A stretch of 64,000 nucleotides of DNA, taken from positions 2,392,483 through 2,456,482 of the forward strand of contig OZ242042.1 of the NCBI GenBank assembly GCA_965204905.1, in the 5' to 3' direction. The stretch's first letter is position 1; the number at the start of each line of letters is the position of its first letter. The position numbers and the translations under genes were made by a program. Below are positions 11,307 to 56,407 of this stretch, piece after piece. A model generated the notes under the pieces. That model saw only the letters and a list, made by a program, of their open reading frames with translations. It searched no databases and was not told the DNA's origin. This stretch comes from Dehalococcoidia bacterium (GTDB taxonomy: Bacteria > Chloroflexota > Dehalococcoidia > Lucifugimonadales > UBA3495).

Positions 11307-11756
11307 TTAACGACCGGAACGCATACCGATGTTGATGCTGTGTTCGGGCGCGTAGGGCAGGAGGGCCAGATAGCGAGCGCGCTTGATGGCCTGGGCCAAC
11401 AGGCGCTGATTCTTGGCCGAGGTGCCGGTTTTGCGGGTGGGTTCGATCTTGCCCTGCTCGGAAATGTACCTGCGGAGCCGGTCAACATCCTTGTAGTCGG
11501 GAGTCACGCCTTCAACAGTGAACGCGCACACCCGGCGTCGCGGGCCGTAGCGTCGTCCGCCCCGTCCGCCGCCTCGGGGACCGCCGCGTCCCGGAGGGCG
11601 TCCACCGGGTCCGCCGGGGCGGCCACCTGGGCCACCGGGAGGGCCGCCTGGACGATTACCGAAGCCGCCCGAAGGTGGACGCGGCGACGCTGCATCGGCG
11701 GGCGCGGGCCGGGGAGTTTCCGACGGGGGTGGAGAAGACGGAGCAGGGGTAGTCAT
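11307..11756 (-). CDS. rpsR: 30S ribosomal protein S18 with Pro/Gly/Arg-rich N-terminal extension
   Basis: The core [49 protein letters not shown] is canonical S18. It is preceded by ~70 aa of P/G/R low complexity. Confidence 0.9.
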
Positions 11757-12317: not shown

Positions 12318-13007
12318 TTACGTTTCGCTTTCGGCAGCGGATTCGCCGGCGGCAGGTTCGGGGGCCGCTGCGGGAGGTTCCGGCTGCGCCTCAGGAGCAG
12401 GTGCGTCAGCAGGAGGCGCCTGGGCGGCCGGGGGTTCCGCAGGGGGCGTCTCGGGGGCGGCCTGGGCGGCGGGAGCGGCCGGGGGTTCCGCAGAGGGCGC
12501 TTCGGGAGTTGCCTGGGCAGCCGGTGCGCCTGGGGTTTCAGACGGCGGAGCGGCTGGCGCGGCAGCCGGCGGTGGGCCAGAGCCACGCTCGGCGGCGGGC
12601 GCCGGCGCTTCGGGTATCGGACCGCCTCCGTCGTTGCGTCGGCCGCGTCCCGGCGGGATGTACCGCGAAGGAGCCGTTAGCGGACCGGGCGGCGGCTTAT
12701 CGGCCAGCGGGCCATCACAGCGGACCACCAGGGCACGCAGCACGTTGTCGTGCAGGCGCAGGTAATTTTCGAGTTCACGGTTGAACGGATTATCCGCGGT
12801 GAATGAACTCAAGTAGTAGGATCCTTCAAGGAAGTTGTAGTTTCCCTTGCGGATCGGGTAGGCCAGACGGCGGGTTCCCCACAGCTGCTCGGCGGTGATT
12901 TCACCCTCGCGATTGGTGATGAAGGATTTTATTTCATCCCAGATGGCGGTCGCGTCGTCCTGGTTGAGCATGGGGCTGAGGATGGTTACAAGTTCGTAGT
13001 GGCGCAA
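12318..13007 (-). CDS. rpsF: 30S ribosomal protein S6 with ~130-aa Pro/Ala-rich C-terminal extension
   Basis: RHYELVTILSP..LWGTRRLAYPIRK is canonical S6. The TTG at 13007 gives the usual M-RHYE N-terminus and has an AGGAGA SD 8 nt upstream. The tail is PAAPE-type low complexity. Confidence 0.85.
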   Translation of the reverse strand: MRHYELVTILSPMLNQDDATAIWDEIKSFITNREGEITAEQLWGTRRLAYPIRKGNYNFLEGSYYLSSFTADNPFNRELENYLRLHDNVLRALVVRCDGPLADKPPPGPLTAPSRYIPPGRGRRNDGGGPIPEAPAPAAERGSGPPPAAAPAAPPSETPGAPAAQATPEAPSAEPPAAPAAQAAPETPPAEPPAAQAPPADAPAPEAQPEPPAAAPEPAAGESAAESET

Positions 13008-13062
13008 GTCGGATTCTCCTGAAAAGGTAGGAACGGGCAACGATTATAGCACAACCCCGGTT

Positions 13063-13803
13063 TCACTCCACGCTCAATTCGTTCAACACCGTAGCAATCA
13101 ATTCAACGCCGCGAGCGCCGGAGCTGGTGCGGGCGATGCGGCCCTCCTTATCCAGAAACACGTAGGAGGGAACACCCCTGATACCGTAGGCGGAGGCGAC
13201 GGCTGCGTCGGGGTCGTAGAGATTGGGGAAGGTGAGTTCATGCCGGTCCACGAAATCCCGACTGGCAGCCTCGGTGGTGTTGAACTGGGAAACGCCGATT
13301 ACATCGATGCCCGCGTCCAGAAGCTCCTCGCGGTAGAGGGCGGCGACAGCGGGCAACTCCCGCTGGCAGTAGGGTCACCAGGGCGCCCAGAAAGCCAACA
13401 AAGTCGGCGTGCCAAAGGTATCGGACAGGACGAGTTCCGACCCGTCCAGCGATTGGGCCTGGAACGGTATCGCGTCGGTGCGCTCTCGTTCGCCGGCCGG
13501 GACCGGTGCGGGGCGCGGCGTGTAGGTGGGCAACGGACGCGGGGTATAAGTGGGCGGAACCGGCGTCTCGGTGACTGGAACCAGCGTGTTGGTTGGAGCA
13601 GCCGGAGCATTGGTGGGGGAAGCCGCAGTATCGGACTGTGCTACCGCCGGCGCGGCGGGTGCAGACGTGGGTAGCAGAGTATCTACCCTGGCTGTGTGTT
13701 CGGCGTCCGAACGATCGGGCGGCGTAGCGGTACAGGCAAGCAGCGACATGACCAGGAATGTCGCGGCAAGGATAGCCATTGTCGCCACTAATCTACGAGT
13801 CAT
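13063..13803 (-). CDS. TlpA/ResA-like thioredoxin-fold lipoprotein, probable selenoprotein (U-P-Y-C redox motif; UGA at 13377..13375)
   Basis: The two listed ORFs (13375..14049 and 13063..13356) are in the same frame and are separated only by TGA. Read through, the sequence is TLLAFWAPW-[TGA]-PYCQRELPAV...GIRGVPSYVFLDKEGRI. This is a complete TlpA-type domain with TGA exactly at the first Cys of WCxxC. The N-terminus MTRRLVATMAILAATFLVMSLLAC is a lipoprotein signal. Confidence 0.7.
13347..13365 (-). promoter_or_regulatory. candidate bacterial SECIS hairpin
   Basis: On the minus strand the sequence reads CAGCGGG-AGUUG-CCCGCUG, a perfect 7-bp stem with a 5-nt loop. G is the second loop base and is followed by U. 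The stem starts 9 nt after the UGA and the loop starts about 20 nt from the U of UGA. Confidence 0.5.
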
Positions 13804-13840
13804 GGGGACTGACAGGGGTAGGCAACTCATACCGGTTGTC

Positions 13841-14620
13841 TCACTCCTGGGTGTCGGGATTCTGCTGGTGGAGTCGGGCTTCCAACTCGCGGACGCGGGC
13901 TTCAGCGGCGTTGGCGCGGGCACGTTCGGCGCTGCGCTGGGCTTCGGCGGCGTTGGTGCGGGCCTCAGCCAGGTCGGCGCGGGCGCGCTCGTCCTCCAGG
14001 GTGGCGATGGGCCGGTCCGTGGCAGGGTCGCAAAAGGCCAGTTGACCATGTTCCCAGCGCAGGCTCAAACCCAGCGCCGCGCTGTATCCCTGCACCCGCT
14101 CCGCCGTGTCCACGTCCATCTCCATGGCATGGTATCGACCGTCATCCCCCAGGTGATAGCCCGTCAGCCGCACGCCGTGGTGCTCCCCCGTCTTGTCAAA
14201 CAGCCAGTATTCCAGCGCCCCCAGCGCTGCGTAGTCATCACGCTTGGCGCCGGTGTCTGTGCTGGCGGTGCTGGGCGAGGCCACCTCCAGAACGAAGTCG
14301 GGCGGCTTACCCTGTTCCGAAACGATGTAGCCGTTGTTGGCCTCATACAGCGCAGGGTCAGCATCCAAGGCCACCAGCAGGTCGGGGTAGCGGGCCAAAT
14401 CCCGAAATGTGCCCGGTTCGGCGATGATCCAGCGGTCAGCCTCCACCAGGGTGGTTTCAGGATTGCCCAGGTGGAGGGCCAGGGAATGGGAAAGTCCGGT
14501 CTTGAACAGTTGGTCGAACTGGGTCACTTCGTCGGGCTCGCGTTCTGGGATGTCGGGCAGGCGGAAGCGGCCCGGAACCGGGGGCGTCTTCACGACGGTA
14601 TCGGGTTTTGCGGTGGTCAT
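13841..14620 (-). CDS. Uma2 (DUF820) family PD-(D/E)xK endonuclease-like protein with C-terminal coiled coil
   Basis: YPDLLVALD...PPDFVLEVASPST...KRDDYAALGALEYWLFD is the Uma2 core. The C-terminus ARADLAEARTNAAEAQRSAERARANAAEARVRELEARL is an Ala/Arg/Glu coiled coil. Confidence 0.8.
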   Translation of the reverse strand: MTTAKPDTVVKTPPVPGRFRLPDIPEREPDEVTQFDQLFKTGLSHSLALHLGNPETTLVEADRWIIAEPGTFRDLARYPDLLVALDADPALYEANNGYIVSEQGKPPDFVLEVASPSTASTDTGAKRDDYAALGALEYWLFDKTGEHHGVRLTGYHLGDDGRYHAMEMDVDTAERVQGYSAALGLSLRWEHGQLAFCDPATDRPIATLEDERARADLAEARTNAAEAQRSAERARANAAEARVRELEARLHQQNPDTQE

Positions 14621-54721: not shown

Positions 54722-56407
54722 TCAGGCGGGAACGCCCAGTTGTTCGGCTTCCTGCTCGGCAACGGCGGCATCCAGCTTGGTGTACAGAGCCGACGGGTTG
54801 CGCAACGGCGCGCCGGGCTTGATGCTTGCGACCAGCGCGTCGAAGTCCCACGGCTCAGCCGATACCTCGCCGTCGAACCCCAAGAACTCGTGGAGCTTCT
54901 GGCTGGTGAAGGGCAGGTACGGCGCGAGCATCACCTTGAGGCAGTTCAGCACCTGGATCGCCGTGCCCAGCGAACGGGCAGCGTCGGCCCGGTCGGTCTT
55001 GATGGACTGCCAGGGCGCGCGGGAGTCCAGGTACCGGTTGGATTCCTGAGCCAGCGCGAAGGCGCGGCTGATGCCGGCGCGGAACCTGGTGTGATACAGG
55101 CTGCTGTCCACATCGGCCATTGCCTGCCGTGCGGATTCCAGCAGCGCGACTTCAGCGTCTTCAGGCGGCGCGGGTTCCACCGGCACCTGCCCGTCGAAGT
55201 TGCGATAGGTGAATCGGAGCACGCGATTGACTAGGTTGCCGTAGGTGGCGACCAGCTCATCGTTGTTGCGGCGGACGAACTCGTTCCAGCTGAAATCGGT
55301 ATCGCCGGTTTCCGGCATGTTGATGGACAGCATATAGCGCAGGGGGTCAGGGTCGTAGCGATCCAGGTAATCCGGGACCCACAGCGCCCAGTTCTGGCTG
55401 GTGGAAAACTTGCGGTTTTCCAGGCTGAGAAACTCGTTGGCCGGCACGTCGTAGGGCAGGTTCAGGCCGCCGTAGGCCATAATCATGGCCGGCCAGATGA
55501 TGCTGTGGAAGGGAATGTTGTCCTTGCCAATGAAGTAGTACGCCTTGGTGTCGGCGTCCTTCCAGAAGTCCTCCCAGGCGTCGGGTCTGCCGCTGCGCTC
55601 CGCCCACTCCACGGCGGCGGACAGGTAGCCGATCACCGCCTCGAACCAGACGTAGATGCGCTTACCTTCGTAACCTTCCATCGGGAGCGGAACGCCCCAC
55701 GTCAAGTCGCGGGATATGGCGCGGTCTTTCAAACCGCCTTGGAGGAATCCGCGGGTGGAGTTGGCGACGTTGGGGCGCCAGAACTCCTTGTCGCCGATCC
55801 AGTCCAGCAGGGGCTGCTCGAAAGCGGACAGGCGCAGGAAGAAGTGCTCGGAATCGCGGAAATCGGGCGTCTCGTTGCAGATACTGCACCTGGGTTCAAC
55901 GAGATCTATCGGGTCGAGAGTGTGGCCGCAGTTATCGCACTGGTCGCCCCGGGCGCGCTCGTTGCGGCAGTGGGGACACGTGCCTTCAACGTAGCGGTCG
56001 GGCAGGAAACGGGAGCAGCCGTCGCAGTGGGCCAGCAGCATCGTGTCCGCGTAGATGTAATCCTGTTCCTGGAGGCGTCGGAAGATGTCCTGCACAACGC
56101 GCTGGTGGTTCTCGGTGTGCGTCGTGGTGAACAGGTCGAAGGTGATGCCCAAACGCTGCCAGGTATCGAGGAACTGGGCGTGATAGCGGTCCAGGATCAC
56201 GCTGGGTTCAACGCCTTCCTGGTCGGCCCGTATCGTAATGGGGGTTCCGTGGGCATCCGAACCGGATACCATCAGCACCTCGTTGCCCTTCATGCGATGG
56301 TAACGGGCAAAAATATCGGCGGCCAAATAGCAGCCGGCGATATGTCCCATGTGCAGGGGGCCGTTGGCGTAGGGCCAGGCAACGCCAATGAAAATTCGCT
56401 CAGGCAA
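54722..56407 (-). CDS. metG: methionine--tRNA ligase
   Basis: PYANGPLHMGH (HIGH), a zinc knuckle CPHC..CDNCG, and KFSTS (KMSKS variant). TTG start with a GAGGAGG SD. Confidence 0.9.
   Translation of the reverse strand: MPERIFIGVAWPYANGPLHMGHIAGCYLAADIFARYHRMKGNEVLMVSGSDAHGTPITIRADQEGVEPSVILDRYHAQFLDTWQRLGITFDLFTTTHTENHQRVVQDIFRRLQEQDYIYADTMLLAHCDGCSRFLPDRYVEGTCPHCRNERARGDQCDNCGHTLDPIDLVEPRCSICNETPDFRDSEHFFLRLSAFEQPLLDWIGDKEFWRPNVANSTRGFLQGGLKDRAISRDLTWGVPLPMEGYEGKRIYVWFEAVIGYLSAAVEWAERSGRPDAWEDFWKDADTKAYYFIGKDNIPFHSIIWPAMIMAYGGLNLPYDVPANEFLSLENRKFSTSQNWALWVPDYLDRYDPDPLRYMLSINMPETGDTDFSWNEFVRRNNDELVATYGNLVNRVLRFTYRNFDGQVPVEPAPPEDAEVALLESARQAMADVDSSLYHTRFRAGISRAFALAQESNRYLDSRAPWQSIKTDRADAARSLGTAIQVLNCLKVMLAPYLPFTSQKLHEFLGFDGEVSAEPWDFDALVASIKPGAPLRNPSALYTKLDAAVAEQEAEQLGVPA

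Follow-up and report, generated by a model that had tools for sequence, protein, structure and literature searches.

The DNA considered here, referred to throughout as the window, is a stretch of 64,000 nucleotides (64 kb) of contig OZ242042.1, from a Dehalococcoidia bacterium. The subject is one minus-strand gene within it, at 13803..13063, which very probably is a genuine selenoprotein gene, that is, one in which an in-frame UGA would be read as selenocysteine (Sec, U). Its predicted product is a membrane-tethered, exported thiol-disulfide oxidoreductase of sponge-associated SAR202/Dehalococcoidia, as judged from sequence and its comparison among relatives. The features of the gene are as follows, with SECIS standing for selenocysteine insertion sequence:

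13063..13803, minus strand: predicted selenoprotein gene, 246 codons including Sec143, with its ATG at 13803 and its terminal TGA at 13065..13063
13375..13377, minus strand: putative Sec-encoding UGA, residue 143, first position of a U-P-Y-C redox motif
13347..13365, minus strand: putative SECIS upper stem-loop CAGCGGG-AGUUG-CCCGCUG, with 5' arm 13365..13359, loop AGUUG 13358..13354, and 3' arm 13353..13347
13331..13380, minus strand: possible extended SECIS with a 5-bp lower helix from RNAalifold, i.e., UGGUG 13380..13376 (including the UG of the UGA) with UACCG 13335..13331
13732..13803, minus strand: signal peptide of a lipoprotein, predicted from motifs, with the lipobox L-L-A-C (Cys24) at its end
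13489..13731, minus strand: Pro/Thr/Ala-rich linker of ~80 residues, with a conserved LLPT and a duplicated TYTPRP
13066..13488, minus strand: TlpA/ResA-type thioredoxin-fold domain, residues ~106-246, with W-U-P-Y-C and the cis-Pro loop G-V-P, from Pfam and a match to ResA

Translation of this frame gives 246 residues with one internal stop, the TGA at 13377..13375, in the context ...GTPTLLAFWAPW-[TGA]-PYCQRELPAVAALYRE..., i.e., ...TLLAFWAPW-[TGA]-PYCQRELPAV.... An earlier reading, made from the letters of this DNA alone and here called the sequence-only reading, had described two same-frame open reading frames (ORFs) separated by that single TGA, with the stop falling exactly on the first Cys of the WCxxC motif of a TlpA/ResA-type domain. 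Both descriptions are borne out, the former by translation and the latter by alignment, with the TGA standing at the nucleophilic Cys of homologues which have Cys at this position (‘Cys forms’). Some gene callers start the gene at another upstream ATG, at 13830.

In the gene calls of indexed assemblies (L001, L003, L004) the gene is split, with the C-terminal 85-97 residues listed as a separate AhpC-TSA/Redoxin ORF, and NCBI records MCY3690974.1 and MDE2684344.1 (in the cluster of P0020) are N-terminal fragments named ‘hypothetical protein’. No full-length, U-containing record was found among the public protein records examined; the gene may already stand in BSepDB. Division into two ORFs everywhere by gene callers, the ‘hypothetical protein’ label on the N-terminal pieces, and Sec machinery which is unseen in the window (no tRNA) all would be consistent as well with a pseudogene. 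That is, a TlpA-like gene could have been inactivated by a nonsense mutation, TGC or TGT to TGA, with the hairpin that follows being a by-product of G+C-rich coding sequence.

Bearing upon this is an orthogroup consisting of the window plus 46 loci (~41 of them distinct) from uncultured Dehalococcoidia, SAR202, and Chloroflexota genomes, many from sponges. Searching with the protein gave over 40 homologues, ranging from 91% to ~40% identity, all of which terminate exactly at ...LLAFWAPW; gene callers met a stop at that column in each. In three closed chromosomes this stop is TGA, followed by a short ORF with the rest of the AhpC-TSA/Redoxin domain, the frame being continuous. Orthologues stand, for example, on the full chromosomes OZ242258.1, OY764869.1, OY762251.1, and OZ220699.1. 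A scan of one genome per species then employed peptide patterns, e.g., LLAFWAPW, and supplied 42 further orthologous loci. As that pattern leaves out the Sec column, the scan is unbiased between TGA and TGC. TGA occupies the Sec column in 47 of 47 orthogroup sequences, vs. TGC or TGT in 38 of 38 outgroup homologues from the same scan (Acidimicrobiia, Nitrospirota, and others, at 29-44% identity and with the motif W-C-P-H-C-QRELP). By its codons this is a classical Sec/Cys pair, and the predicted Sec form is the fixed state of one whole orthogroup, that of marine and sponge-associated Dehalococcoidia/SAR202.

Recurrence of this arrangement in 46 related loci from independent assemblies rules out chance as well as sequencing error. 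Nor are those loci copies of one contaminant, as ~41 are distinct, going down to ~50% protein identity. In 46 of the 47 sequences the stretch past the TGA is exactly 103 sense codons long, is free of indels, and closes with the same Glu (the other, L045, ends at a contig edge), and this is among sequences which have diverged to more than one synonymous substitution per site (dS >1). Pairwise Nei-Gojobori estimates over those 103 codons have medians of 0.22 for nonsynonymous substitutions per site (dN), 1.17 for dS, and 0.16 for dN/dS, with a maximum of 0.36, and the numbers of variable columns at codon positions 1, 2, and 3 are 59, 52, and 100, respectively. The first three codons past the TGA vary (+1 as CCC/CCA/CCG, +2 as TAC/CAC/CAT/TAT, and +3 as TGT/TGC), with P-[YH]-C being kept. 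An intact downstream frame, purifying selection, and a P-[YH]-C which persists despite synonymous variation together argue the pseudogene away, as too do the compensatory changes and synonymous-site conservation of the hairpin, described below. Our credence in that explanation is vanishingly small. The sequence-only reading had itself named TGC or TGT in close relatives, along with frame decay, as marks of a pseudogene, and had looked to homologues to settle the column. No orthogroup relative possesses a Cys codon there, these being found only in the 38 distant relatives, and no decay was found.

A different possibility is that the UGA is a true stop, with the C-terminal part re-initiated at a TTG seven codons downstream, and with two polypeptides then forming the thioredoxin fold. 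This TTG, the only start-like codon, is present at +7 in 44 of 47 sequences, directly after a purine-rich GGGAG, and an ORF listing does call a 97-aa ORF from it. It lies, however, past the conserved P-[YH]-C, and three genomes have in its place TTT, which is not a start codon, for which reasons re-initiation is excluded. Codons +1 to +3, being upstream of the TTG and yet retaining P-[YH]-C with synonymous variation, must be translated, and neither piece would retain the resolving Cys146. The GGGAG furthermore abuts the TTG, unlike a functional Shine-Dalgarno sequence, which has a spacer. The C-terminal piece also is without a signal peptide, its partner being exported. A split gene is consequently judged to be very improbable.

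The sequence-only reading had claimed a perfect hairpin at 13365..13347, nine nucleotides past the UGA, as well as its fit to bacterial SECIS geometry. The hairpin is present at exactly those positions, with its 5' arm starting 9 nt past the UGA and with 16 nt separating UGA and apical loop, and of the stem it is the 6 inner bp, 13364..13348, that form the conserved core. A 61-nt fold of the window sequence has a free energy of -26.2 kcal/mol (z = -2.3 vs. shuffles), while the isolated 19-nt hairpin has -12.2 kcal/mol. The claim as to geometry likewise stands, given the criteria for a bacterial SECIS (bSECIS) collected in a 2026 review (PMC13188914). Those criteria, with what was found, are as follows: an apical loop of 3-9 nt (here 5 nt, or 3 nt in AGUUU variants); an upper stem of 4-16 bp (here 6-7 bp); a G within the first two loop positions, mostly as G[G/U] (here an invariant A-G-U-U); a UGA-to-loop spacing of 16-37 nt (here 16 nt, i.e., the lower limit); and a hairpin minimum free energy (MFE) of -7.5 kcal/mol or lower (here -9.8 to -15.5 kcal/mol over 13 distinct 19-nt hairpins).

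Conservation of the hairpin was assessed from an alignment of 42 distinct 75-nt segments, in which columns 13-15 contain the TGA and columns 32-36 the loop. For the six inner pairs, 99.6% of alignment cells are paired. Four of these pairs are invariant G-C or C-G, and the other two co-vary, with pair 26-42 found as GC 18, AU 16, CG 5, UA 1, and GU 1 and pair 27-41 as GC 26, AU 12, and GU 4. The covariation score is 0.313 vs. a shuffled mean of 0.127, with 0 of 500 shuffles reaching 0.313 and with slid registers scoring at most 0.19; RNAalifold, supplied with no structure, recovers the same six pairs. The loop is invariant for A-G-U-U in all 42 sequences, with G or U as its fifth base. Third positions are invariant in just three of the 103 codons downstream, CGG (Arg +5), GAG (Glu +6), and CCC (Pro +8), each of which lies within the hairpin, and the loop Leu (+7) is encoded by TTG in 44 of 47 sequences and never by CTN. 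The co-varying bases alter amino acids, i.e., Q/G/A/R/L at +4 and A/V at +9, and these protein positions therefore drift in step so as to keep the RNA paired. As read from this alignment, the hairpin is a selected RNA structure, with compensatory changes.

A lower helix, UGGUG/UACCG, may enclose this upper hairpin. It is conserved, though without compensatory change, and UACCG coincides with invariant Tyr-Arg codons, such that its conservation is indistinguishable from conservation at the level of protein. The alternative lower stem GGUGAC/GUCGCC of the single-sequence MFE structure was rejected, being 81.7% paired and lacking covariation. Rfam gave no match at gathering score over the whole window, and, at a permissive E-value over 13200-13500, gave only a chance match (RF01090, 15 bits, E = 3.2), which is on the other strand. 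Absent a matching Rfam family, no curated SECIS family covers the element. Outside of the orthogroup, the window and all 84 loci searched yielded no hairpin with an AGTT[GT] loop located past an in-frame TGA.

Decoding of a UGA as Sec would call for Sec machinery, and a tRNA search of the 64-kb window found no tRNA genes, in keeping with the earlier claim that tRNA-Sec is not encoded there. One of the orthologous loci (L039) comes from MPNC01000001.1 of SAR202 cluster bacterium bin87 (MPNC00000000), a Chloroflexi genome of the SAR202 clade that is 91% complete and 62.8% G+C (Slaby et al. 2017, PMC5649159). For bin87, Table S4 of that publication has three copies of SelA (COG1921), one of SelB (COG3276), and one of SelD (COG0709), COG being short for cluster of orthologous groups. 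The same table has SelA, SelB, and SelD in all five SAR202 bins, and SelA and SelB are described as enriched in sponge symbionts relative to free-living relatives (PMC5649159). BSepDB, whose entries are limited to species having two or more Sec-pathway genes, includes within its top ten two Dehalococcoidia metagenome-assembled genomes (49 and 46 selenoprotein genes; PMC13326102). Chloroflexi go unmentioned in the 2016 ISME J survey of selenium. With the bin87 machinery annotated, the other SAR202 bins alike, and Dehalococcoidia ranked high in BSepDB, the lineage may be seen as an established heavy user of Sec. The sequence-only reading had let its case turn on Sec-insertion machinery being present elsewhere in the genome, and the published annotation of SelA, SelB, and SelD in the orthologue-bearing bin87 speaks in favour of that expectation.

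It is here that Sec-independent recoding needs to be weighed, i.e., that a near-cognate tRNA, for Trp or Cys, reads the UGA, whether stimulated by the hairpin or via a lineage-specific decoding of UGA. The amino acid inserted is not deducible from sequence analysis alone, the hairpin is short and at minimal spacing, and the window's own Sec machinery is unseen, all of which lend this explanation some room. The terminal stops of the same orthogroup genes, however, are TGA in 21, TAA in 16, and TAG in 9, the internal stop alone being constant. UGA thus ends 21 of 46 copies of this very gene, and in the window it ends many other ORFs too, from which it follows that the lineage has not reassigned it. 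The position, in addition, is that of the catalytic Cys, where Sec is a known functional substitute and where Trp would kill the enzyme. Cys, if that were what is inserted, would be had more simply from a Cys codon than through misreading. The loop G-U at positions 2-3 is typical of SelB-binding SECIS elements (PMC13188914), and SelA, SelB, and SelD are annotated in bin87. Sec-independent recoding is accordingly given only a small probability, and decoding as Sec remains the preferred reading.

As to the protein, with U read as C, Pfam matches AhpC-TSA (1.6e-23, 83.4 bits) and Redoxin (1.7e-20, 73.8 bits), with cut-offs of ~26, over residues 110-231, that is, across the stop. Among solved structures it comes closest to ResA of B. 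subtilis (E = 1.4e-17), to DsbF and MPT53/DsbE of M. tuberculosis, to pneumococcal Etrx, and to StoA. In the alignment W-U-P-Y-C falls upon W-C-P-H-C of PDB 3c71, and G-V-P upon the P-L-P cis-Pro loop of ResA. NF041054, the NCBIfam model for a ResA-like WAxxUGC selenoprotein, scores 63 bits against a cut-off of 300 bits, the motif here being U-P-[YH]-C. Given scores below cut-off for both this model and that of the ResA subfamily (see below), and a motif which is not U-G-C, the protein is best described as a TlpA/ResA-type thioredoxin which is neither a ResA equivalog nor a member of the UGC family. A true peroxiredoxin was considered and rejected, with the active site FWAPW-U-PYC being thioredoxin-type WCxxC and with no PxxxTxxC/U (no TxxC/U is present).

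The N-terminal sequence, MTRRLVATMAILAATFLVMSLLAC, combines an n-region of positive charge with a hydrophobic core and a lipobox Cys, motifs from which a lipoprotein signal is predicted. That Cys can be recognised in 42 or more of 43 distinct orthologues, and Cys24 is invariant in alignment A1. A lipoprotein signal followed by a Pro/Thr-rich linker had been part of the sequence-only reading, as had been an exported, membrane-tethered selenoprotein oxidoreductase as the product, and these are supported by the motifs, by the conservation of the lipobox, by the ResA-type match, and by the Sec/Cys pair. The linker, which is of low complexity, displays LLPT in 35 of 43 distinct orthologues and T[YF]TPRP once or twice, with the window having PPTYTPRPLPTYTPRP. 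Possibly these linker motifs are a binding or modification site.

The mechanism proposed is as follows. During translation the UGA at 13377..13375 would be read as selenocysteine, with the stem-loop starting 9-10 nt past it (6-7 bp, G+C-rich, loop A-G-U-U-G/U) serving as a bacterial SECIS that would recruit SelB-GTP-Sec-tRNA(Sec) to the ribosome while the UGA occupies the A site, as we infer from sequence together with comparative evidence. SelB-dependent insertion of Sec at this UGA, directed by the stem-loop at 13364..13348, is considered to be highly likely. The product would then be exported via the general secretory (Sec) translocon, its signal peptide cut at the lipobox, and Cys24 lipidated; export and lipidation, which are read from motifs, are also likely, if with a degree less assurance. 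The ~80-residue, Pro/Thr-rich linker would hold the thioredoxin-fold domain outside of the cytoplasmic membrane. There Sec143 would be the attacking nucleophile and Cys146 the resolving residue, with a selenenylsulfide replacing the disulfide, and recycling presumably would be via a CcdA/DsbD-type membrane electron carrier. By analogy with relatives, the TlpA/ResA-type oxidoreductase most likely acts as a reductase. The fuller picture of an extracytoplasmic thiol-disulfide reductase with Sec143/Cys146 chemistry and CcdA/DsbD-type recycling is, on balance, somewhat favoured. Candidate substrates are apocytochrome c, Cu-centre assembly factors, and an extracytoplasmic methionine sulfoxide reductase.

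Various observations weigh against parts of this proposal. A UGA-to-loop spacing of 16 nt is the least that published criteria allow. The stem is short; of its six core pairs, four are invariant and hence uninformative, and the outermost (seventh) pair is formed in just 19 of 42 sequences. The hairpin is partly dictated by the conserved R-E-L-P, and in relatives of Cys form a partial hairpin is present already. The window's own genome is known here by its 64 kb, in which no tRNA was found and no Sec machinery seen. What evidence there is for machinery concerns a related genome, and consists of published COG counts for SelA, SelB, and SelD rather than of gene sequences. The best NCBIfam model, that of the ResA subfamily (NF002854), scores 86 bits, which is below its cut-off of 170 bits. 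Lastly, no redox-partner or cytochrome-maturation genes (resB/resC/ccdA) are found within ~6 kb in the window, L001, L003, or L004, for which reason the physiological role is a guess from homology. With regard to R-E-L-P, outgroups of Cys form encode Q-R-E-L-P via GAG or GAA plus CTG, and have hairpins of 4-5 bp with 6-nt loops and -6.5 to -10 kcal/mol. As the same peptide folds more weakly in those Cys forms, and as there is synonymous conservation in the Sec forms, the hairpin is not a by-product of the peptide.

The gene resides within a conserved housekeeping order, i.e., NUDIX, InhA-like, pth, Uma2 (in the window only), the selenoprotein gene, rpsF, ssb, rpsR, SurA-like, hom, and thrC; annotation within the 64-kb window covers only the ten ORFs next to the selenoprotein gene. 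The Uma2-family gene (restriction-endonuclease fold; 13841-14620, minus strand) lies between pth and the selenoprotein gene and is absent there in the syntenic L001. Its COG is greatly expanded in SAR202 sponge-symbiont bins, with 42 copies in bin87 (PMC5649159), an expansion which fits a sponge-symbiont origin for the window. On the other side, rpsF (12318-13040, minus strand) has its S6 domain at residues 14-107 of 240, followed by a C-terminal Pro/Ala/Glu-rich tail of ~130 residues. The rpsR gene (11307-11756, minus strand) has its S18 domain at residues 84-133 of 149, preceded by an N-terminal Gly/Pro/Arg-rich extension of ~80 residues. S6 and S18 genes of similar length are called in L001 and L003.

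No other credible selenoprotein genes were found in the window by two scans for an in-frame TGA with coding signal on both sides, which returned off-frame artefacts and one pair of ORFs at 54724. That pair, on the minus strand, consists of ORFs of 576 and 340 codons in the same frame, with a single TGA between them and coding-like composition on both sides. The TGA has the context ..LGVPA*SLPIE.., without a redox motif, and folding around it is weak (-8.1 kcal/mol). The two ORFs most likely represent merely adjacent genes.

From the above it follows that the protein records examined lack one conserved, predicted extracytoplasmic redox enzyme, from a lineage of marine bacteria and sponge symbionts which is abundant and uncultured. 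The apparent fixation of Sec at the catalytic position in 47 sequences adds to the evidence for selenium dependence of SAR202-type Dehalococcoidia. The 42-sequence alignment, in turn, represents an unusually clean, covariation-backed example of a very small bacterial SECIS, one which should be useful for training or checking selenoprotein predictors, and predictors, according to the literature, still struggle with the diversity of bacterial SECIS elements.

There is also the question of where such a SECIS might come from. In relatives of Cys form from other phyla (L054-L083; Acidimicrobiia and others), C-P-H-C-Q-R-E-L-P is encoded by CGGGAGCUGCCCC, a sequence that forms a partial hairpin of 4-5 bp, CGGG...CCCG, located 12-31 nt after the Cys codon. 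This partial hairpin may be a pre-adaptation for a switch from Cys to Sec. A change of CUG to UUG, along with co-varying changes at two flanking codons, would then have yielded a minimal SelB-binding element at minimal spacing. Only tentatively, and with the odds rather against it, is the orthogroup viewed as a selenoenzyme which spans its lineage, the sponge-associated SAR202/Dehalococcoidia, and has never reverted, with a SECIS built upon pre-existing coding context. Were this true, the orthogroup would supply a clean natural example both of a Cys-to-Sec switch and of the origin of a SECIS. It would supply as well a lineage-specific, very small SECIS (6 bp plus an AGUU loop) usable for finding ~40-50 other selenoprotein genes in these genomes.

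Turning to known systems, the sequence-only reading had called U-x-x-C thioredoxin-fold proteins an established class of selenoprotein, and the literature agrees. Such UxxC selenoproteins, of Prx-like or Trx-like fold, go back to the earliest surveys of prokaryotic selenoproteomes. ‘Prx-like 1’ (PF00578, UxxC), with 225 sequences in the Global Ocean Sampling (GOS) data, is among the most abundant marine selenoprotein families (PMC2398784, Table 2). The 2026 review lists a thiol:disulfide oxidoreductase that is Prx-like, a thiol:disulfide interchange protein, and a UGC-containing TlpA family, and also predicted exported selenoproteins, e.g., DsbA-like and DsbG-like (PMC13188914). With Prx-like 1/Trx-like UxxC proteins the window's protein shares a thioredoxin fold, PF00578 as its best Pfam match, predicted Sec as the first residue of UxxC, many Cys homologues, a bSECIS directly past the UGA, and a marine bacterial origin; membership here is by family definition (PF00578 plus UxxC), and is putative at the level of the subfamily, for which WP_010940744.1 is a reference sequence. 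The window's clade has in addition a lipoprotein signal, TYTPRP repeats within a Pro/Thr linker of 80 residues, and Sec that appears fixed in Dehalococcoidia/SAR202. With the UGC-containing TlpA family (NF041054; cd02966, PMC13188914) are shared a TlpA/ResA-like fold, an active-site Sec, and W-A-x-x-U (here W-A-P-W-U). That family differs in having a U-G-C motif vs. U-P-[YH]-C and a profile of 354 residues, and the window's protein is not a member.

ResA of B. subtilis (PDB 1st9, 3c71) is the closest structure, matching over 135 residues with W-C-x-x-C and the cis-Pro aligned. It too is membrane-tethered outside of the cytoplasm, in a cell of Gram-positive type, and is a reductase of cytochrome c maturation. 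ResA differs, however, in possessing Cys (CEPC) rather than Sec, in being anchored by a transmembrane helix rather than through a lipobox, and in being encoded with resBC. Etrx1 and Etrx2 of S. pneumoniae (2yp6, 4hqz, 4hqs) and DsbE and DsbF of M. tuberculosis (1lu4, 3ios), at E = 1e-15 to 1e-17, similarly are surface-exposed or secreted TlpA-like thioredoxins of bacteria with no outer membrane, but all are Cys enzymes. The Etrx proteins are lipoproteins, and their genes adjoin ccdA and msrAB, whereas the window's selenoprotein gene lies upstream of rpsF-ssb-rpsR.

For the RNA element, the point of reference is the SECIS of E. coli fdhF and fdnG. Shared with it are a stem-loop within coding sequence right past the UGA, a G-U in the apical loop, and the consensus criteria. 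The minimal E. coli element has its upper stem-loop ~11 nt after the UGA, and that of the window starts ~10 nt past it. By comparison, the window's element lacks sequence similarity to the E. coli elements, has no identified bulged U, and consists of just 6-7 bp at the 16-nt minimum spacing. The window's gene is, overall, a well-supported addition to the known UxxC class, one which leaves unchanged what is known of Sec decoding and of the kinds of proteins that use Sec.

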